Assembly: GCA_963707215.1 (NCBI GenBank) | Contig: CAVPPB010000001.1 | Coordinates: 416,001 to 480,000, forward strand | DNA: 64,000 bases | Source: an uncultured Chloroflexia bacterium | GTDB lineage: Bacteria; Chloroflexota; Limnocylindria; Limnocylindrales; CSP1-4 | Reading direction: 5' to 3' | In this document: positions 27,663-37,075 of the stretch, in pieces | Layout of the letters: the number at the start of each line of letters is the position of its first letter | Numbering within the stretch: position 1 is the first letter of the stretch | Program-made: the position numbers and the translations under genes | Notes under the pieces: generated by a model | Told to the model about the DNA's origin: nothing | Database searches by the model: none | Seen by the model: only the letters and a program-made list of their open reading frames with translations

Positions 27663-28646
27663 TCAGTCGAGGGTGAAGTCGTCCGGGTCGGCGTAGGCCC
27701 CGGTCCGTTCCTTCTCGAGCTGCATCAGGACGTCGTTGAGCAGGCTCGAGGCTCCGAAGCGGAAGCGCTCCGGGGTCATCCACCGCGGGCCGAGCGTCTC
27801 GTAGAGGACGACGAGGTACTGGATCGCTTCCTTGGCCGTCCGGATCCCGCCGGCCGGCTTCATCCCGACGGCCCGGCCGGTGGCGGCCTCGAAGTCGCGG
27901 ATCGCCTCGAGCATCACCAGCGTGACGGGCAGCGTGGCCGCGGGGCTGACCTTGCCCGTCGAGGTCTTGATGAAGTCGGCCCCGGCCGCCATCGCCAGGA
28001 CCGAGGCCCGCCGGACGGCATCGTATGTACCCAGCTCGCCGGTCTCGAGGATGACCTTCAGATGGGCCTCGCCGGCGGCATCCTTGATCGCCACGATCTC
28101 GTCGAAGACCGTCCGGTAATCACCGGAAAGGAATGCACCGCGGTCGATCACCATGTCGACCTCGTCGGCCCCGGCGTCCACGGCGGCCCGGGTCTCGGCG
28201 AGCTTGATGTCGAGGAACGTCTGGCCCGACGGGAAGCCGGTCGCCACGGAAGCGACCCGGACCTGGGAGCCTCGCAGCGCCTCCTTCGCCTCGGCGACGA
28301 GCGCCGGGTAGACGCAGACGGCCGCCACCGACGGGATGGACGGGTCGCCGGGCATCGGCCGGACGGCCTTGGCGCAGAGGGCCCGCACCTTGCCCGACGT
28401 GTCCTTGCCCTCGAGGGTCGTCAGGTCGATCATCCGGACCGCAAGATCGAGTGCCCAGACCTTCGAGGCCCGCTTGATCGATCGCTTCTTGAGGGCGTCC
28501 ACGCGCTGCTCAGCGGCGACCTGGTCGACCGGGCTCACCCGGCCGAGCATCCCGGCCAGCGAGCCGGGACGGGCATCCCAGGCCAGGACAAGCTCGTTGG
28601 CCCGGGTCCGGGCCGCGGAATCGCGAGGCGTGGTCGCGGTCGTCAT
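27663..28646 (-). CDS. deoC: Deoxyribose-phosphate aldolase (long form)
   Basis: IDLTTLEG, VATGFPSG, LKVILETGEL, ADFIKTSTGK, KPAGGIRT, RFGASSLL. Confidence 0.96.
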   Translation of the reverse strand: MTTATTPRDSAARTRANELVLAWDARPGSLAGMLGRVSPVDQVAAEQRVDALKKRSIKRASKVWALDLAVRMIDLTTLEGKDTSGKVRALCAKAVRPMPGDPSIPSVAAVCVYPALVAEAKEALRGSQVRVASVATGFPSGQTFLDIKLAETRAAVDAGADEVDMVIDRGAFLSGDYRTVFDEIVAIKDAAGEAHLKVILETGELGTYDAVRRASVLAMAAGADFIKTSTGKVSPAATLPVTLVMLEAIRDFEAATGRAVGMKPAGGIRTAKEAIQYLVVLYETLGPRWMTPERFRFGASSLLNDVLMQLEKERTGAYADPDDFTLD

Positions 28647-28706
28647 GGGACGGGAAGGATACACCCGCCCGTCATGGCCGCCGAGAGCCCTCGCGACCCG
28701 TGGCGA

Positions 28707-30857
28707 TCAGGCGCCGGCCCGCTGCCGGGGCTTCGGCGGGAGTCGTCGCCCGTCGTCGACGAGATACCAGCGGAACCAATCACGGACCTGCTCGAGATGG
28801 GCGACCCGGCGGTACGGTGTCCCTGAGCGGGTGAGCTCGTGCGTCTCCCCGGGCACCCGCATGAGGCGTACCGGCCGGCCCAGCGAGCGCAGGACCGTGA
28901 AGAGCGACTCCGCCTGGGCCACCGTGGTCCGGATGTCGTCCTCCGCGTGCTGGATCAGCAGCGGGGTCCGGATGCCCGACGCGTAGGTCAGCGGCGAGAT
29001 CCGCGCGTAGAGCGCGAGATCCTCCCACGGCGCGACCCCGAACTCGAGACGGGCCCAGTCGCCGGAGGCGATGTCCCCGGTCAGCATGAGCGTCGTCATG
29101 TCGCTGACCCCACGACAGGTCATGGCGGCCCGGAAGCGGTCGTCGTGGGCGATGATCCAGGTCGTGAGGTAGCCCCCATACGAGCCCCCCGTGACACCGA
29201 GCCGATCCGGATCGGCCCGCCCCTCGGCGACCAGGTCGTCTACCCCGGCCAGCACGTCGCGCATGGGCCCATCGCCCCAGTCGCCGGCGTTGGCGGCGTT
29301 GAAGGCCTGGCCGTAGCCCTCCGACCCGCGCGGATTGGCAGCGTAGACCCCGATCCCCTGCCCGGCCAGGACCTGCCACTCCCACATCGGCGCCCAGCCG
29401 TACAGCGTGTGCGGCCCACCATGGATCTCCAGGACGAGCGGCGCCTCGCGGGGTCCGGCGGTCGCGTCGCCGGGGATCGGCGGGTAGTACCAGCCCTGGA
29501 TCCGCCGTCCGTCCACCTCGGACCAACGCTCCTCGGGCTCGACGAGCGCGACGCCGTCGAGGAGGTCGCGGTGCAGGTCGGTCAGGCGGCGGGGCTTGAG
29601 CGAGCCGCGGACCCGGCCGGCCGGGACGTCGACCAGGTGGAGGTCGGCCGGTGAGGTCGCCGTCGCGATGAGCAGCGCGACCCGGGTCGAGCCCCGGGGC
29701 CCCGGGACCGCGTCGACCGACACGACATAGTGGCGTCCCTGCGTGAGGCGCTCGACAGAGCCGTCGGCGACGGCGATCCGCCAGAGCTCGTACGAACCAT
29801 CGACGGGGGCCGTGAAGAGGATCCAGCGCCCGTCGGCCGTCGGCAGCAATCGCTCGCCACGACCGGGCGAGAGGTCGCTGTTCATCGTGGACCCCGGCAT
29901 GAGGTCATGGGCGCCGCTGAGGTTCCGGCCGCCGGTCCGGAGATCATCCGAGCCGTCGGCAGCGAACAGCCAGACGTCCGCCCTGCTACCGGCGCCGACA
30001 GGGAAGCGGTGGCCCAGGAGGGCCAGGGTGCGCCCGTCCGGCAGCCAGGTCGGCTCGAAGAAGACCCCGCCACCGCCGGTGATCCGGGTGACCCGGCCGC
30101 TGGCGACCTCGACCACCCAGACGTCGCTCTGGAACGTCTTGTCCGCGCCGGGTCGTCGATCCGCGACGAAGGCGACCCGGCTGCCGTCGGGGGACCAGGC
30201 CGGCGACTCCTCACTGGTCCGGCCTCGGGTGAGCTGGCGGGCCTCGCCGGTCCCGGCGTCGACGATCCAGAGGTGCGATACACGGTCGTCGATGAAGCCT
30301 CGACCGTTGTAGAGGTACCCGAGCCGGTCGAGGTAGCGGATGTCGGAGCGGGGCGGACGTCCCGGCTCCGACTCGCCGAGCCGGCGCAGCCGGGCGTCGC
30401 GGCGGCGATCGGCGGCCAGCGAAGTCGTCGAGACCAGGAGATAGCGTCCATCCGGCGACCACGACAGGCCGTCGACCCCCCGAGGCAGATCGGTCAGGCG
30501 ACGGGCCTCGCCGCCATCTACCGGCAGGAGGTGGACCTGGCTGCCGTCCTCGCGCTTCGCCGGATCGCGGTCGACGCCGGGCGGTGGGTCCTCCACGAAC
30601 AGCCGGCGGTCCGACAGGAAGGCCAGGGTCCGGCCGTCCGGCGACGGTCGGGCATGGAGATCGCGCCGGGAGCCGAGGGTGACCTGCCGGGTCGCGCCGT
30701 CATCCAGGCCGACGCTCCAGATCGCCTGACGGTAGCCGTCGAAGCCGGGCGCCACCGTCGCGATCGTCATCGTCGCAGACCGCCCGTCGGGCGACAGCCG
30801 CGGGCCGGTGGGGACCCGCAGTCGGTACAGGTCGTCGGGCGAGGCTGGTCGGGGCAT
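28707..30857 (-). CDS. S9 family peptidase with TolB/PD40 repeats
   Basis: WSPDG repeats, IHGGPH, NPRGSEGYG, GGSYGG, DDIRT, ETHEL. Confidence 0.93.
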   Translation of the reverse strand: MPRPASPDDLYRLRVPTGPRLSPDGRSATMTIATVAPGFDGYRQAIWSVGLDDGATRQVTLGSRRDLHARPSPDGRTLAFLSDRRLFVEDPPPGVDRDPAKREDGSQVHLLPVDGGEARRLTDLPRGVDGLSWSPDGRYLLVSTTSLAADRRRDARLRRLGESEPGRPPRSDIRYLDRLGYLYNGRGFIDDRVSHLWIVDAGTGEARQLTRGRTSEESPAWSPDGSRVAFVADRRPGADKTFQSDVWVVEVASGRVTRITGGGGVFFEPTWLPDGRTLALLGHRFPVGAGSRADVWLFAADGSDDLRTGGRNLSGAHDLMPGSTMNSDLSPGRGERLLPTADGRWILFTAPVDGSYELWRIAVADGSVERLTQGRHYVVSVDAVPGPRGSTRVALLIATATSPADLHLVDVPAGRVRGSLKPRRLTDLHRDLLDGVALVEPEERWSEVDGRRIQGWYYPPIPGDATAGPREAPLVLEIHGGPHTLYGWAPMWEWQVLAGQGIGVYAANPRGSEGYGQAFNAANAGDWGDGPMRDVLAGVDDLVAEGRADPDRLGVTGGSYGGYLTTWIIAHDDRFRAAMTCRGVSDMTTLMLTGDIASGDWARLEFGVAPWEDLALYARISPLTYASGIRTPLLIQHAEDDIRTTVAQAESLFTVLRSLGRPVRLMRVPGETHELTRSGTPYRRVAHLEQVRDWFRWYLVDDGRRLPPKPRQRAGA

Positions 30858-30958
30858 CCACTCCTCCCGGGTTCCTTCGGGCAATCGGGCCCGGGCCGGC
30901 CGCCAGTCTAGCGGCTACCATCGAGTGCGATGCGCCCTCTCGGGCCCCGGTGCGAGCC

Positions 30959-31762
30959 ATGACCGACCAGCTGTCGCTCGACCTCGACGACGCCCTGCCC
31001 CATCCTCCGAGCCTCCTTCGACCGATGCTGCCTCGTCCGGCCGCCGAGCCGTTCGACAGCGCCGATCACCTCTTCGAGCCGAGCTGGGGTGGGCGGCGGG
31101 CCCTCGCGTTCCTCGAGCCGGCGGTGGAGCGCGATGCAGGGGGTCGCTGGCTGACGGCGACCGGGGGGCCATCGCTCCGCCTCCTCGATGCCGGCGGGAC
31201 CGACCTGGCCGGGCTCGCCCCCGAGCTCGACGAGCTGGCGCTCCGGGTCGAGGCCCGGTCCGCGGTCCTCGATGGCGAGATCGTCGCCACCGAGCCGTCG
31301 GGTCGGGCGGATCGCGGCGCCCTCGACGTCCGTCTGGGCGGTCGCCCCGGCCCTCCGCTGACCTACCTCGTCTTCGACCTCCTCTACCTGGACGGCCGGC
31401 CGCTCCTGGGGCAGCCACTGGCTCGCCGGCGCGAGGCCCTGCGGCGGATCGTCCGGCCGGGACCGGAGATCGTGGCGGTCCCGGCGATCCCGGGCGAGGG
31501 ACGGGCCCTCCACGATGCGGTCACCGCCCAGGGGCTCGCCGGCGTGCTCGCCCGGCAGCGGGCCAGCCCCTACCTGCCGGGGGTCCGCAGCCGCCTCTGG
31601 CGTTCGATCACCGCCGGGGCTCCCATCCTGTCGTCGGCGTCGACGGGCGACCATGCGGATGCGCCACCGGGGTCGGACGCGGCGGGCGCCGACGTGCCGG
31701 CGCTCGGCCGAGGCTCCATCCTGGCGGTGATCCGCAAGCTCCCGCTGGAGGACGAGCCGTAG
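30959..31762 (+). CDS. ATP-dependent DNA ligase adenylation-domain homologue, catalytically degenerate, no OB domain
   Basis: RPML, FEPSWGGRR (motif I KxDG lost), VLDGEIV, YLVFDLLYLDG, PLARRREAL, GLAGVLAR, SPYLPGVRSRLW. Confidence 0.85.
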   Translation: MTDQLSLDLDDALPHPPSLLRPMLPRPAAEPFDSADHLFEPSWGGRRALAFLEPAVERDAGGRWLTATGGPSLRLLDAGGTDLAGLAPELDELALRVEARSAVLDGEIVATEPSGRADRGALDVRLGGRPGPPLTYLVFDLLYLDGRPLLGQPLARRREALRRIVRPGPEIVAVPAIPGEGRALHDAVTAQGLAGVLARQRASPYLPGVRSRLWRSITAGAPILSSASTGDHADAPPGSDAAGADVPALGRGSILAVIRKLPLEDEP

Positions 31763-31837: not shown

Positions 31838-33160
31838 CTAGTCGCCGCGGCGGGCCACGGCAAGGAAGAGCCGCAGGCCGGGTCGCTGGCCGTAGAGCAG
31901 GACCCCGGCCCGGTAGACGCGGACCGCCACGGCCGCGGCGGCCACGACCGACCCGGCCAGGATGCCGAGCGACAGGGCGAGCTCCCACGGTTCCACTCGG
32001 CTGACCATGATCCTTGCCAGCATCACGAATGGGCTCCAGAAGGGGACGAACGAGGCGATCCGGGCGAGGGCGTCGAAGCCGCCCGGGATCGACACGATGG
32101 CGATCAGATAGCCGGCCATCGAGAGCAGGCTCAGGGGCAGGGCGACGACCTGGAGGTCCTCCTGACGGCTGACCAGCGATCCGGCGGCCGCGTAGATGAC
32201 CGCGTAGAAGGCGAAACCCAGGACGAAGTAGGCAAGGAAGGCGACCAGGAGCCCCGGGGTGAGCCCGGCCAGCGAGACGGTCTCTCCGGCCGCAGGCCCC
32301 AGGATGGCAGCCGCCAGCACCTCCTGGACGACCAGGATGAGGCCAGCAGGCAGGAGGATCGCCAGGTACTGGGTCAAGCCGGCCGCACCAAGCCCGACGA
32401 CCTTCCCGGCCAGCAGCTGCTCGGCCGACGCCGCGCTGACGAGCAGCTCCATGACTCGCGAGCTCTTCTCGGTGGCCACGCCGGCGGCCACCCACATCCC
32501 GTAGATGACCAGGGTGATGAAGATCAGGACGACGAAGGCGATGGCCAGGAACGAGCGGCTGGCGGCCACCGTGGGGTCGACCGGCCGACCGCCCTCGGTC
32601 GCCCCGCCGCTCGCCACGATGTCGTAGCCCGGGACACGGAAGGCGTCGGCTCCAGGGTCGATCGTGCCGTCGGCCTGCCAGTCCAGGATGGCCGCGCCCA
32701 GGGCCGCGAAACCGACCAGCTGGGCCGTCGTGGAGCCGCGCGGCCCGGCGGTGTGGAAGGTGAACGAAAGTCCCCCGGACTCGAGCCGCTCGACGATGAC
32801 GGTGCCGGCGATCGAGCTCGCCTCGACGGCGGCGATCTCGGCCTGGGCCGAGGTTCCGGCGACGATGTCGTAGGGCTCGACCCAGCCGGGCGGCCCGGTA
32901 CCCGTCGGCGGCATGTTGAGCACGCCGCCCAGCGAGGCGATGGTCAGCGACTCGACCGCCGGATCGTCGGCGACGACGGTGAGCGTCTGGATGGTCGTCC
33001 GCTCAGCCAGCCGGATCACCAGCGGCCCGAGGGCGATCGTGCCGGCGATGAGCGCCAGGATCACGGTCGAGACGATGAAGAGGCGGCTGCGCACGCGCTC
33101 GCGGTACTCGCGAGCGGCCACCCGTCCTGCGTTGGGGACGAGCGGCTCGTGTCGGCTCAT
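31838..33160 (-). CDS. ABC-2 permease (NatB/YhaP-like)
   Basis: VAAREYRERVRSR, GVATEKSSRVMELL, LLAGKVVG, YRAGVLLYG. Confidence 0.9.
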   Translation of the reverse strand: MSRHEPLVPNAGRVAAREYRERVRSRLFIVSTVILALIAGTIALGPLVIRLAERTTIQTLTVVADDPAVESLTIASLGGVLNMPPTGTGPPGWVEPYDIVAGTSAQAEIAAVEASSIAGTVIVERLESGGLSFTFHTAGPRGSTTAQLVGFAALGAAILDWQADGTIDPGADAFRVPGYDIVASGGATEGGRPVDPTVAASRSFLAIAFVVLIFITLVIYGMWVAAGVATEKSSRVMELLVSAASAEQLLAGKVVGLGAAGLTQYLAILLPAGLILVVQEVLAAAILGPAAGETVSLAGLTPGLLVAFLAYFVLGFAFYAVIYAAAGSLVSRQEDLQVVALPLSLLSMAGYLIAIVSIPGGFDALARIASFVPFWSPFVMLARIMVSRVEPWELALSLGILAGSVVAAAAVAVRVYRAGVLLYGQRPGLRLFLAVARRGD

Positions 33161-34185
33161 CGCCGCGCCTCCCCCGCCGTCGCGGGATCCGACGGTGCCG
33201 GTACCGGCCCGTCGGCAGCCGCGTCCGGGGGTTGCCTCGTCGGCGAAGGCACGTGCGAGGGCCCCAGCGAAGCCGCCTCGCTGGCCGGCCGGCCGACACG
33301 CTCGATGAAGAGCTGCTCCAGCGAAGGCTCAAGGACCTCGAACCGACGGACCTTCAGGCCCCGGGCCAGCGCGGCCGCCAGGACGTCGTCCGGCTCGACC
33401 GCCGGATCGAGCGCCAGCTCGACCTCGTCGACGCCGGGTCGGACGACCCGAACGCCGTGGAGATCGTCGAGCCAGGCCGTCTCGCCGGCCGTCTCGAAGC
33501 CGATCCGGATGGCCCGGCCACGGGCCGCCCGCTTCACCTCGCGCAGCTCGCCTGCCACCACGAGTCGGCCCCGGTCGATGATGGCCACGGACTCGCACAT
33601 CGCCTCGACGGTCTCCATCTGGTGGGTCGAGAAGACCAGGGTGCGGCCGCGCTCGCGCAGCTCGAGGAATGCCTCCCGGAGCAGGGCGGCGTTGACCGGG
33701 TCGAGCCCGGTGAACGGCTCGTCCATCAGGAGGACCTCCGGATCGTGGAGGACGGCCGCCAGGAACTGGATCTTCTGCTGGTTGCCCTTCGAGAGCTCCT
33801 CGGCCGGGCGATCGGCCAGGTCCGGGATGCGGAGCCGATCGAGCCAGTCGAGGGCGTCGCGCCGTGCCCGGTCGGCGGACACGCCGTGGAGGCCGGCGAA
33901 GAAGACCAGCTGATCGACGACCCGCATCCGGGGATAGAGACCGCGCTCCTCGGGCAGGTAGCCGAAGGTCGACCGAGGCAGGTCGAGGGTAGAGCGGCCC
34001 CGCCAGGTGATCGCCCCGGCGTCGGGCCGGACGACCCCGAGGGCGATCCGCATCGTGGTCGTCTTGCCGGCCCCGTTGGCGCCGAGGAAGCCGAAGACCT
34101 GACCGGCGGGCGCCTCGAACGACAGGTCGTCGAGAGCCGTGACCGGCCCGAAGCGCTTGACGACGCCGTCGACGACGAGGCTCAT
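33157..34185 (-). CDS. ABC ATP-binding protein (NatA/YhaQ-like)
   Basis: GANGAGKTT, GYLPEERGLY, LSKGNQQK, MDEPFTGLDP; ATG 34185 after GGAGG. Confidence 0.94.
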   Translation of the reverse strand: MSLVVDGVVKRFGPVTALDDLSFEAPAGQVFGFLGANGAGKTTTMRIALGVVRPDAGAITWRGRSTLDLPRSTFGYLPEERGLYPRMRVVDQLVFFAGLHGVSADRARRDALDWLDRLRIPDLADRPAEELSKGNQQKIQFLAAVLHDPEVLLMDEPFTGLDPVNAALLREAFLELRERGRTLVFSTHQMETVEAMCESVAIIDRGRLVVAGELREVKRAARGRAIRIGFETAGETAWLDDLHGVRVVRPGVDEVELALDPAVEPDDVLAAALARGLKVRRFEVLEPSLEQLFIERVGRPASEAASLGPSHVPSPTRQPPDAAADGPVPAPSDPATAGEARR

Positions 34186-34393
34186 GGACGTGGCTGCCTC
34201 CGGGAGGTGACGCTGCGCCGAGGATATCCCCGACCGGTCGGAGCATCCTCGGCCCGGTCCGGTCGGGGGCAGCGGCCGATGGTCCCGGTGGCAGGGAGGC
34301 GCTGGCCCCACGGGGCCCATCATCCCGCACGGTCCCGGGACGCGCATCCGGGGTTCTCCCGGCATCGCCGGGCCTGCCCCTAGAATGCGCCCC

Positions 34394-34439
34394 GTGACGA
34401 ACCCCATGACGAACCCCGTGCCGAACCCCGACCCGAACC
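34394..34439 (+). repeat. Degenerate 12-bp tandem repeat (xxNP codons) at the DUF971 start
   Basis: GTGACGAACCCC ATGACGAACCCC GTGCCGAACCCC GACCCGAACC. Confidence 0.7.
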
Positions 34440-34789
34440 GGCCGACCCGCATCCACGCCGACCGGACCGCCGCGCGGCTGGAGATCGCCTGGGCCGACGG
34501 CCACGAGACGACCTACGAGCTCGTGGCCCTGCGCTGGCTCTGCCCGTGCGCCTACTGCCGGGGCGAGGCGGGGCTGCCCGGCTGGCTCGACTCCGGCCCG
34601 ACCCTGACGCCGGAGCAGACCCGCCTCGTCGACCTCCAGCTCGTCGGCAACTACGCGGTCGCCCCGACCTGGGGCGACGGTCACCACACAGGCTTCTACG
34701 CCTTCGATCTGCTCCGCGACCGCTGTCCGTGCCGCGACTGCGCCACCCGGCGAGCGTCCTCGTCGGCGGACCTTCGCCCGCCCGGCTAG
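34394..34789 (+). CDS. DUF971 / GBBH-like N-terminal domain protein
   Basis: LEIAWADG, LRWLCPCAYC, VGNYAV, WGDGHHTGFY; GTG 7 nt after TAGAAT. Confidence 0.88.
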   Translation: MTNPMTNPVPNPDPNRPTRIHADRTAARLEIAWADGHETTYELVALRWLCPCAYCRGEAGLPGWLDSGPTLTPEQTRLVDLQLVGNYAVAPTWGDGHHTGFYAFDLLRDRCPCRDCATRRASSSADLRPPG

Positions 34790-34903
34790 ACAGGCGCCCA
34801 CGCCGGGGCGGAGCGCCGGCCCGTGCTACGATTCGCGGTCAGTCCAGCGTCGAGCGCCTGTCGGGGACGCGATCCCGCGGGCATGCACCGGGAGCAGACC
34901 GCC

Positions 34904-37075
34904 GTGACCGCCGTCGAGTCGCCGCAGACCCGCCCCACGGGCGCGCGGTCCGGCCGTGGGCGGCGGGCCCGAGCCACCGTCCCCTACCTCAACCGGGAGT
35001 TCTCCTGGCTGCAGTTCAACGCCCGGGTCCTCCACGAGGCGCGCGATCATCGGAACCCGCTCCTGGAGCGGGCCAAGTTCCTGGCCATCTTCGCCAGCAA
35101 CCTCGACGAGTTCTTCCAGGTCCGGATCACCGGCCTCCGGGAGCAGGTCCGATCCGGATCGACGAAGTCCTCGATCGACGGCAAGAGCCCGGTCGAGCAG
35201 CTCGCCGAGGCCCGGACGCGGGTCCTCGAGCTGGTGGCCGAGCAGTCGGCCATCTTCAACGACGTCAAGGCCGGCCTCGCCGAGCACGGCATCACGATCG
35301 CCGAGTACGCCGAGGTCCCCGAGCATCATGAACAGCTCCGCCAGCGGTTCCTGGAGGAGATCTTCCCGGTCCTCACCCCGCTGGCCGTCGACCCGGGCCA
35401 CCCCTTCCCGTACATCAGCACGCTGAGCCTGTCGATCGCCGTCGGCCTCCACGACCCCGACACCGGCGACCGGCGCTTCGCCCGGGTCAAGGTCCCGCCG
35501 ATCCTGCCTCGCTTCGTCGAAGTCGAGCCGTCGCGGTTCGTGCTCCTGGACCAGATCATCGAGGCGAACCTGGACCTGCTCTTCCGGGGCATGGAGATCG
35601 TCGAGACCCACCTCTTCCGGGTCACTCGCAACGCCGACCTGGCGATCGAAGAGGACGAGGCCGACGACCTGCTCATGGCCGTCGAGGAGGAGCTCCGGCG
35701 GCGTCGCTTCGGCGGTCCGGTGCGGCTCGAGGTGGAGCGCTCCATGCCGGGCACGACGCGCGACATCCTGCTCCGCGGCATCGGCCTCACCGAGGACGAC
35801 TGCTACGAGATCAGTGGCATGCTCGACCACACGGCCCTGTGGCAGCTGGTCTCCCTCGATCGACCCGACCTCTCGATCGCCCCCTGGTCGCCGATCACCC
35901 CACCGCGCCTGCTCCCACCGGACGAGGACGAGCCGACCGACATCTTCGCGGTCATCCGCAACGGCGACCTCCTGGTCCACCATCCCTACGAGAGCTTCGC
36001 GGCCTCGACGGAGCGCTTCGTGGCCCAGGCGGCCGACGACCCCGAGGTCATGACGATCAAGGCGACGCTCTACCGGACCTCCGGCGATTCGCCGATCGTC
36101 CACTCGCTGATCCGGGCGGCCGAGCGCCGCAAGCAGGTCGTGGTCCTGGTCGAGATCAAGGCCCGCTTCGACGAGGAGGCCAACATCGTCTGGGCCCGCA
36201 AGCTCGAGCAGGCCGGGGCCCACGTCGTCTACGGGCTCGTGGGCCTCAAGACGCACTCCAAGATCGCCCTGGTCGTCCGTCGCGAGGGCTCGATCCTCCG
36301 TCGCTACGTCCACATCGGGACCGGCAACTACCACCCCAGGACGGCCCGCCTCTACGTCGACCTGGGGCTCCTCAGTTGCCGCGAGGACCTCGGCGCCGAC
36401 GTCACAGACCTCTTCAACGTCCTGACCGGGCTCTCGCGCCAGCGCGAGTTCCGCCGCCTGCTCGTGGCCCCGCACACGATGCGCCAGCGATTCCTGGAGC
36501 TGGTCGATCGCGAGATCGCCCACGCCCGGGCGGGCCGGCAGGCCCGGATCATCGTCAAGACGAACGCGATCGTCGACCTCGCCTCGATCGAAGCCCTCTA
36601 CCGGGCCGGCCAGGCCGGCGTGGAGGTCGACCTGATCATCCGCGGCATCTGCTGCCTGGTGCCCGGGATCGAGGGCGTCTCGGACCGCATCAGGGTCCGC
36701 TCCGTCGTCGGCGAGTTCCTGGAGCATTCCCGCATCTGGGGCTTCGCCAACGGCGGCCGCGACGAGTGGTACCTGGGCTCGGCCGATCTCATGGAGCGCA
36801 ATCTCGACCGCCGCATCGAGGCGGCCACGCCGGTCGACGATCCGATCGCCCAGGAGCGGCTCCGGGAGGTCGTCGAGGTGATGATGGCCGACGATCGGCA
36901 CTCGTGGCAGCTGGGCTCCGATGCGATCTGGCGCCGGACCGAGGAGATCGACGGCCGAGAGGGGCATCTCGGCACCTTCGAGGTGCTGAAGGACCGCGCC
37001 CTGGCCGCCCAGGAGGTCGCGGTGACGCCGCACCGGCCGGGCGAGGGCACCGGCTCGCTGGACCCGAGGGCCTAG
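34904..37075 (+). CDS. ppk1: Polyphosphate kinase 1
   Basis: YLNREFSWLQFNARVL, HPFPYIS, VHHPYESF, IKARFDE, LKTHSK, GTGNY, SADLMERNLDRRIE; start 34883 or 34904. Confidence 0.97.
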   Translation: MTAVESPQTRPTGARSGRGRRARATVPYLNREFSWLQFNARVLHEARDHRNPLLERAKFLAIFASNLDEFFQVRITGLREQVRSGSTKSSIDGKSPVEQLAEARTRVLELVAEQSAIFNDVKAGLAEHGITIAEYAEVPEHHEQLRQRFLEEIFPVLTPLAVDPGHPFPYISTLSLSIAVGLHDPDTGDRRFARVKVPPILPRFVEVEPSRFVLLDQIIEANLDLLFRGMEIVETHLFRVTRNADLAIEEDEADDLLMAVEEELRRRRFGGPVRLEVERSMPGTTRDILLRGIGLTEDDCYEISGMLDHTALWQLVSLDRPDLSIAPWSPITPPRLLPPDEDEPTDIFAVIRNGDLLVHHPYESFAASTERFVAQAADDPEVMTIKATLYRTSGDSPIVHSLIRAAERRKQVVVLVEIKARFDEEANIVWARKLEQAGAHVVYGLVGLKTHSKIALVVRREGSILRRYVHIGTGNYHPRTARLYVDLGLLSCREDLGADVTDLFNVLTGLSRQREFRRLLVAPHTMRQRFLELVDREIAHARAGRQARIIVKTNAIVDLASIEALYRAGQAGVEVDLIIRGICCLVPGIEGVSDRIRVRSVVGEFLEHSRIWGFANGGRDEWYLGSADLMERNLDRRIEAATPVDDPIAQERLREVVEVMMADDRHSWQLGSDAIWRRTEEIDGREGHLGTFEVLKDRALAAQEVAVTPHRPGEGTGSLDPRA

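Follow-up and report, generated by a model that had tools for sequence, protein, structure and literature searches.

What keeps a DNA ligase domain in a genome once it can no longer ligate? The question is raised by a locus in a window of 64,000 nucleotides, i.e. the whole stretch of DNA analysed here (contig CAVPPB010000001.1, positions 416,001 to 480,000), from an uncultured Chloroflexia bacterium of the class Limnocylindria. The gene concerned (30959..31762, + strand) encodes a non-catalytic ligase-like protein of 267 amino acids (P0001), with no break between its ATG at 30959 and its stop codon at 31760-31762; an in-frame GTG at 30950 is a possible alternative start. The protein has a catalytically dead ligase domain, no OB domain and a conserved peptide at either end. 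We tentatively propose that it is a maintained non-catalytic adaptor or competitor, derived from an end-joining ligase and acting via these end peptides, a reading that we find plausible and no stronger than that.

PF01068 (DNA_ligase_A_M) was the only family found in a Pfam search of the 267-amino acid protein (residues 97-214, expectation value (E) 2e-13), and NCBIfam models for LigD and for non-homologous end joining (NHEJ) ligases align to residues 17-217 with scores far under their cut-offs (e.g. 85.8 vs 227.75 bits). The closest solved structure by sequence is the ligase domain of M. tuberculosis LigD (1vs0, E 8.9e-14). An AlphaFold2 model built on an alignment of 104 homologues reached a mean predicted local distance difference test score (pLDDT) of 86.5 and a predicted template modelling score of 0.83, being confident at residues 20-220 (block pLDDT 92-97) and disordered at residues 1-18 and 221-250. 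The top Foldseek matches of this model are ATP-dependent DNA ligases (E about 1e-13 to 1e-14), among them LigD structures 6nhx and 1vs0 (27% identity; template modelling score, by query, 0.58-0.63). PF01068, the model and the Foldseek matches together delimit an adenylation (nucleotidyltransferase) domain at residues 20-220 (31016..31618, +). This domain is followed by only 47 residues, mostly predicted to be disordered, and the OB-domain family PF04679 gave no match at E up to 1 in the same Pfam search; in its place lies an Ala/Gly/Pro-rich variable linker (residues 221-250; 31619..31708, +; block pLDDT 51-59), the columns of which are gap-rich in 120 homologues.

Motif I survives as the remnant EPSWGGRR (residues 40-47; 31076..31099, +), in which Lys is replaced by Ser42 (31082-31084) and Asp by Gly44. 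The remnants of motifs IV and V, GLAGVLAR (192-199) and WRSIT (214-218), together span residues 192-218 (31532..31612, +), with the catalytic Glu and Lys replaced. VLDGEIV (103-109), YLVFDLL (136-142) and SPYLPGVRS (203-211) are present. The protein begins MTDQLSLDL, and the DQLSLDL at residues 3-9 (30965..30985, +) resembles a clamp-binding motif; towards the other end lies the conserved peptide SILAVIRKLPL (residues 253-263; 31715..31747, +; ILAVIRKLPL at 254-263), followed by an acidic end. The initial annotation of this locus had described an unbroken frame encoding a ligase domain without catalytic residues, with a linker where the OB domain should be; every motif that it quoted was confirmed as written and in its place, and the architecture is borne out by PF01068, the motif strings and the missing PF04679 match.

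The same residues are missing throughout the family. A homologue search over 5.8 billion proteins, in which 8000 candidates were scored, gave 1827 matches at E up to 1e-3, and all homologue counts given here refer to the best 120 of these. They share 54-80% identity with the window protein, are 237-361 amino acids long, are annotated with PF01068 only and, where named, come from Limnocylindrales, Chloroflexota or Dormibacteraeota metagenome-assembled genomes (MAGs). The motif I Lys (position 42) occurs in 0/120 and the Asp (position 44) in 2/120; the motif Ia Arg (R78) is kept in two homologues, motif IV E194 in none and K199 in one, and neither motif V lysine (K216, K218) in any. In a joint alignment with intact ligases, K42, D44, R78, E194, K199 and K216 are each found in 40/40 of the latter, and position 218 is Lys in 28/40. 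Retained are R47 of motif I (120/120), E107 of motif III (118/120) and F139 of motif IIIa (120/120), and D105, G106 and D140 do not vary within the close family. Alignment A1, which comprises 104 of the 120 homologues (15 with a query coverage of at most 92% were left out, as was P0096, a 323-amino acid gene call), contains 35 invariant and 60 nearly invariant columns. Lys makes up 0.2% of family residues vs 10.8% for Arg, with no conserved Lys column. The change from Lys to Arg at position 199 could be compositional; composition cannot account for a nucleophile that has become Ser, Ala or Thr, and the LigD of the same genome retains motif I as FEIKWDGYR. Judged from the alignments, the residues for all three ligation steps are gone, and this loss is family-wide and selective.

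A quick maximum-likelihood tree of 92 rows, hand-picked from about 430 proteins, gathers the 27 sampled family members into one clade (Shimodaira-Hasegawa-like approximate likelihood ratio test 99), in all of which the same six catalytic positions are replaced, except that K199 is Lys in 4/27. The family occurs in uncultured soil and freshwater Chloroflexota. Its profile aligns end to end with orthologues at 248-406 bits and with real ligases over the core only, at no more than 165 bits. Counting as orthologues those rows that score at least 248 bits and extend from model position 1-3 to about 260 (one row only to 235), we obtained 66 rows, corresponding to 65 genomes as G123 was counted twice; the next rows below were a 180.6-bit fragment at a contig end and then matches of at most 165 bits over about positions 14-223. 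By this profile search the protein is present in 65/92 genomes of its own Limnocylindria family (f1) and in 0/209 genomes of sister families f2-f5 of the same class, tallies that take in unpublished genomes; an earlier sample had given 22/37 f1 genomes and 0/24 f2 genomes. In a search of genome contigs, all matches above 50% identity were to Limnocylindria or Chloroflexota MAGs, identity then falling to at most 38% in ordinary ligases of other phyla, and the ESM Atlas returned only the family's own Chloroflexota clusters.

None of the 42 distinct loci recovered has an interrupted reading frame. Ratios of nonsynonymous to synonymous substitution (dN/dS) were obtained by the Nei-Gojobori method from 42 distinct sequences, out of the 45 that 52 loci and the window had yielded. 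Comparison with the closest orthologue (L044, 82% identity) gave a dN of 0.125 and a dS of 0.754, i.e. a ratio of 0.165; the remaining 40 pairs gave 0.24-0.58, values that are over-estimated because dS is near saturation. At the level of coding sequence, the fold of the adenylation domain is shown to be retained under purifying selection. The initial annotation had argued for a maintained pseudoenzyme rather than decay, and both the family-wide selective loss and the ratio in the closest pair agree with it; the joint conservation of EPxWGG and an N-terminal QLSLxL and the dN/dS below 1, both of which it had proposed to look for, were found in the 120 homologues and in the closest pair respectively.

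Besides the fold, the family keeps its two ends. Though predicted to be disordered (pLDDT about 50), the N-terminal peptide ranks with the most strongly conserved segments of the protein, with Q4 in 119 of the 120 homologues, L5 in 119, S6 in 106, L7 in 112 and L9 in 114. At the C-terminus the consensus is PVLALIRRLPL, then acidic residues (P253 in 108, A256 in 117, R260 in 112, L261 in 119, P262 in 119 and L263 in 98). By pattern, DQLSLxL is found in 115/120, a C-terminus of the LIRRLPL-acidic type in 112/120 and both in 107/120, most exceptions looking like truncated or over-extended gene calls. The short amphipathic tail noticed earlier is present, with a helix predicted at residues 251-259 (block pLDDT 77); it is no mere remnant, being a second conserved peptide. 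Both peptides are also kept in the divergent members P0175, P0176, P0189, P0191 and P0210, found among 1.84 billion cluster representatives. A further search added P0431, P0432 and P0434, in which the motif III Glu has become Trp or Met, yet both peptides are kept (QLDLSI or QLPLAI at the N-terminus, LIQRLP(L/F) at the C-terminus). In the wider clade E107 remains in 20/27 members and F139 in 17/27. Since the peptides outlast the nucleotide pocket, an adaptor is favoured and a nucleotide sensor disfavoured. Elsewhere in the same genome, the C-terminal motif has 10 loose matches in open-frame C-termini, none of them informative.

What might the N-terminal peptide bind? Clamp-binding peptides take two consensus forms, the pentapeptide QL[SD]LF and the hexapeptide QLxLxL, and Hda carries an N-terminal hexapeptide of the QLSLPL type. 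QLSLDL at residues 4-9 fits the hexapeptide form, lies on a flexible segment and is conserved among the homologues. The accessible text of PMC3664792 gives QLSLPL as a variant, in the epsilon subunit, of the clamp-binding motif. Docking of residues 1-45 on the DnaN of the same genome, encoded at G000 C4:101531-102646, scored 0.58 (runs 0.56, 0.58 and 0.58), against 0.11 for the best of three controls, with a partner pLDDT of at least 40 and a contact agreement of at least 39%, for which the verdict of the tool is weak support. In calibration, the mark was reached by 58/80 solved complexes and 2/110 mismatches, scores of at most 0.60 comprising seven of those 80 complexes and both passing mismatches; the tool itself cautions that most passes are false unless the pairing had been expected in the first place. 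A Y-family polymerase homologue of the same genome (IMS + IMS_C; L218, G000 C3:1108216-1109718, -) carries QLSLF after its little-finger domain, which shows this organism to make use of the canonical clamp motif. A separate lysine-less Dehalococcoidia lineage (P0198, P0390 and P0391) begins MPQLSLF at the same place as the window protein begins its motif; as this is the pentapeptide form, we count it for the clamp. Of the earlier suggestion that the N-terminus binds the clamp, the conservation of the motif stood, and the binding itself gains weak support from the one docking score. On balance, we consider binding of the sliding clamp by the N-terminal peptide probable, by a modest measure.

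Several observations weigh against the clamp and the adaptor alike. The docking score may reflect memory of solved clamp-peptide complexes, and the 14,842 stop-to-stop frames of the genome contain 21 instances of the pattern QL[SDT]L(F or x[LF]); clamp binding rests on a short, low-information motif. The occurrence of these end peptides on ligases of Ku operons is as compatible with binding to Ku as with binding to the clamp, and in the Ku-linked ligase of family f3 the N-terminal stretch reads PTLLDV, with no Gln. The C-terminal helix, as modelled, might pack on its own domain in cis, without a partner. The tree does not settle which intact clade is sister to the family, and the neighbourhood of the seven mapped genes gives no functional hint. 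Finally, the gene was not found in 27/92 f1 genomes, and it is dispensable for that reason.

Further carriers of such motifs and further losses were seen in passing. A homologue of N6/N4 DNA methyltransferases (PF01555; L219, G000 C3:459677-461149, +) has QLSLGL near its predicted N-terminus and is, from this motif, a possible second carrier of the clamp motif. Other ligase-like lineages without the motif I Lys or Asp, in which the OB domain is kept, comprise P0198, P0390 and P0391 and a group of about 320-365 amino acids (e.g. P0195, P0196, P0215, P0249, P0251, P0253, P0392 and P0393) that belongs, where named, to Dehalococcoidia or Chloroflexota. Ligase chemistry seems to have been lost more than once in Chloroflexota. 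No Ku was found in the eight flanking frames of a 3.5-kb contig of the MPQLSLF lineage, which is too small to conclude from.

The C-terminal peptide raises a possible link to end joining. It had been noted at the outset that no Ku or PrimPol gene is nearby, and this is true of the window; among the seven window genes mapped in 20 orthologous loci there is no Ku either, and in the genome as a whole contig C3 carries the single Ku match, at G000 C3:808320-809477, together with the LigD-type gene, and contig C1 the ligase-like gene. As a sign of separation from end joining, the same statement fails, for intact Ku-adjacent ligases with related peptides exist in Dormibacteria and in f3. The Dormibacteria ligases around P0179 (120 sequences) have motif I as EVKWDG(L/I)R in 120/120, keep the OB domain, and carry an N-terminus of the QLxIxL type in 117/120 and a C-terminal LTRFPF in 119/120; in the one locus examined (L143), the ligase gene begins 26 nt after Ku. 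In Limnocylindria family f3, Ku is followed by an intact, OB-containing ligase ending LMVLHSLPFGPE (LMVLHSLPF). A C-terminal hydrophobic-x-x-(L/F)-P-(L/F) peptide is thus common to the window protein (IRKLPL), the Dormibacteria ligases (LTRFPF) and the f3 ligase (LHSLPF). These intact Ku-adjacent ligases with related end peptides make both an end-joining origin and a Ku partner live possibilities. That the C-terminal peptide does bind Ku is conceivable, if unlikely on what we have seen. The LigD of the same genome has PE, ligase and polymerase domains (PE-Lig-Pol); its gene (G000 C3:797756-801349, -) spans three frames, i.e. two apparent frameshifts, which could be an assembly error or mark a pseudogene.

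The window protein derives from an ATP-dependent DNA ligase of the stand-alone LigD/LigC type and is no longer catalytic. In a plausible history, a stand-alone ligase that worked with Ku would have become catalytically dispensable when the genome also had a multidomain LigD, and it may then have lost its OB domain and its chemistry and been retained for the role of its end peptides. As an adaptor or competitor, it would act through these peptides. The N-terminal DQLSLxL would dock in the peptide pocket of the beta clamp, like Hda, Y-family polymerases and ImuB, and the C-terminal hydrophobic-x-R-L-P-L would bind a second partner, for which Ku is the foremost candidate, given that the genes of intact ligases with related tails directly follow Ku. 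An inert ligase-shaped module would in this way be placed at clamp-marked DNA or at Ku-bound ends, where it could bridge the clamp and Ku ends or regulate the access of real ligases. The most specific version, a repair scaffold derived from clamp-tethered Chloroflexota NHEJ ligases, in which the inert ligase domain bridges the clamp (N-terminal peptide) and Ku ends (C-terminal peptide), is quite doubtful. XRCC4, XLF and PAXX are non-catalytic NHEJ scaffolds, and such a bridging protein, if real, would be a bacterial parallel to them and to the PCNA box of ligase I.

An end-joining accessory factor that does without the clamp is the alternative that fares best, and even so we hold it to be unlikely. 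Both peptides would then bind Ku or another NHEJ component, and the inert domain would either form a structural bridge at breaks occupied by Ku or compete there with LigD. The intact ligases with related N- and C-terminal peptides encoded directly after Ku speak for such a factor, but the N-terminal peptide fits both clamp-motif forms (QLSLxL here, QLSLF in P0198) and the gene itself is never beside Ku in the 20 loci, in which the seven window genes were mapped. Ku is found in 64/65 f1 genomes with the protein, but also in 22/27 without it (86/92 overall), and G013 (90% complete) has the protein and no Ku match; in favour of the factor, both protein and Ku are missing from the streamlined family f2 (0/24 genomes, and 0/12 in a second count). 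A precedent exists in mammals, where catalytically inactive Lig4 has a structural role according to the accessible text of PMC11754673. Ku co-occurrence was rejected as a functional clue: with Ku present in nearly all genomes outside f2, it carries no information, and the phyletic profiles do not decide between clamp and Ku.

Less credible still is a protein that remains ligand-binding or enzymatic. The initial annotation had offered a nick or DNA-end sensor among the possible roles, a suggestion weakened by the motif Ia Arg, which is found in 40/40 intact ligases vs 2/120 here. A partly kept adenine pocket could in principle bind ATP, AMP, NAD or 5'-adenylated DNA, in which case the protein would be a sensor or a transferase of a non-canonical kind, and the near-constancy of R47, E107 and F139, together with the invariant D105, G106 and D140, would suit it; these residues may, however, serve the fold alone, no Lys is conserved anywhere in a family in which Lys is so rare, the phosphate-holding motif IV Glu and the motif V lysines are gone, and in the wider clade the pocket decays (see E107 and F139 above) where the peptides stay. 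We regard such a retained ligand-binding or enzymatic role as highly improbable. That the gene is a functionless, decaying relic of a duplicated ligase gene, to which the f1 genomes lacking a match might point, is nearly untenable in view of the open frame in 42/42 loci, the low dN/dS, the 35 invariant and 60 nearly invariant columns, the conserved disordered end peptides and a conserved promoter-like element.

Known systems resemble the proposed adaptor in parts only. The LigD/LigC ligases (PF01068 + PF04679) share with it the adenylation fold, motifs III and IIIa and the SxYxPGxRS segment; unlike them, the window protein has no OB domain, lacks the motif I, Ia, IV and V residues and has conserved end peptides. 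The Ku-adjacent ligases of Dormibacteria and f3 belong to the same phylum and have related ends at the same places (DQLQIEL; LTRFPF or LHSLPF), but theirs are intact enzymes (EVKWDGLR in 120/120) with an OB domain, encoded after Ku, and the tree does not show them as sisters of the family. The Lig1-DNA-PCNA structure 7qnz was among the Foldseek matches, and eukaryotic Lig1 carries an N-terminal PCNA-interacting peptide (PIP) box that binds PCNA. T4 ligase is described in the accessible text of PMC12121391 as tethered to the gp45 clamp via a motif on an unstructured segment. Both are thus ligase-fold proteins with a clamp motif on an unstructured segment, as the window protein may be; unlike it, they are active enzymes, and they work on PCNA-type clamps. 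Hda, for which a complex with the clamp is reported in the accessible text of PMC5397184, has an N-terminal hexapeptide of the same type on a flexible end, but is an AAA+ protein without a ligase fold, and there is no homology to the window protein with its sole Pfam family PF01068. ImuB, a scaffold of the mutasome, is likewise a dead member of a DNA-enzyme family, a catalytically dead Y-family polymerase thought, in the accessible text of PMC11791113, to act via the clamp and partner proteins; its fold and pathway are different and its partners are known.

Dead-enzyme scaffolds are therefore known for bacterial polymerases (ImuB), and for bacterial DNA ligases we found none described: full-text searches of the literature (supplements lay outside the search) turned up neither a lysine-less bacterial ligase family nor a Limnocylindria ligase, and PMC10140301 contained nothing relevant. 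The family offers a clean case in which ligation chemistry has been erased and the fold kept, with the end peptides as its most persistent features. Should the N-terminal peptide indeed bind the clamp, some bacterial end-joining ligases would also be clamp-tethered, because active Dormibacteria ligases carry the same peptide beside Ku; bacterial NHEJ would then be linked to the clamp, a connection absent from current models. A practical consequence concerns the source annotations, which misname the family as 'bifunctional non-homologous end joining protein LigD' or 'ATP-dependent DNA ligase' and so inflate the inferred repair capacity of Limnocylindria genomes.

The gene is monocistronic, divergent from an S9 peptidase gene and convergent with an ABC-2 permease gene. 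The neighbouring open reading frames (ORFs), named from their translations only, are deoC, an S9-type peptidase, an ABC-2 permease with an ABC ATPase, a DUF971-like ORF and ppk1, at 27663-28664 (-), 28707-30884 (-), 31838-34452 (-) and 34385-37075 (+). When these seven window genes were mapped onto 20 orthologous loci, the block deoC - S9 peptidase, the gene, ABC permease - ABC ATPase - DUF971 - ppk1 proved syntenic, with the peptidase adjoining the gene in 15/20 loci (plus one partial match) and the permease in 16/20. As all 20 loci belong to a single family, this synteny reflects kinship; the seven mapped genes include none for repair.

In the region upstream of the gene (30905-30962), two -10-like hexamers stand back to back: AGTCTA, which reads TAGACT on the opposite strand, and TACCAT (30916..30921, +), the latter a putative promoter element of the gene. 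The TAGACT hexamer probably serves the divergent S9 peptidase gene; its AGTCTA half is absent in L028, where the peptidase gene does not adjoin. A 17-nt upstream element, of which no second copy was found in the genome at up to two mismatches, is explained as these two hexamers. Neither a GAAC-N4-GTTC-type box nor a TGTC-N8-12-TAnnnT element was found upstream in the 42 loci, and damage-inducible regulation was rejected, as no LexA-type or actinobacterial damage-promoter pattern occurs in them. All 42 distinct orthologous loci have a TACCAT-like hexamer at a distance of 12-70 nt before the DQL codon. In 29 of these the layout is leaderless, with the start codon 6-11 nt after the hexamer and two codons before DQL, which fixes the N-terminal motif at the very N-terminus of the protein. 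The window itself differs in having a 10-codon, out-of-frame mini-ORF (30930..30962, +), whose TGA overlaps the ATG of the gene (ATGA). The same layout, with 9-10 codons and a stop overlapping an ATG or GTG start, is shared by L044, L045, L024 and L025, and from this overlap the mini-ORF and the gene may be translated in a coupled manner.

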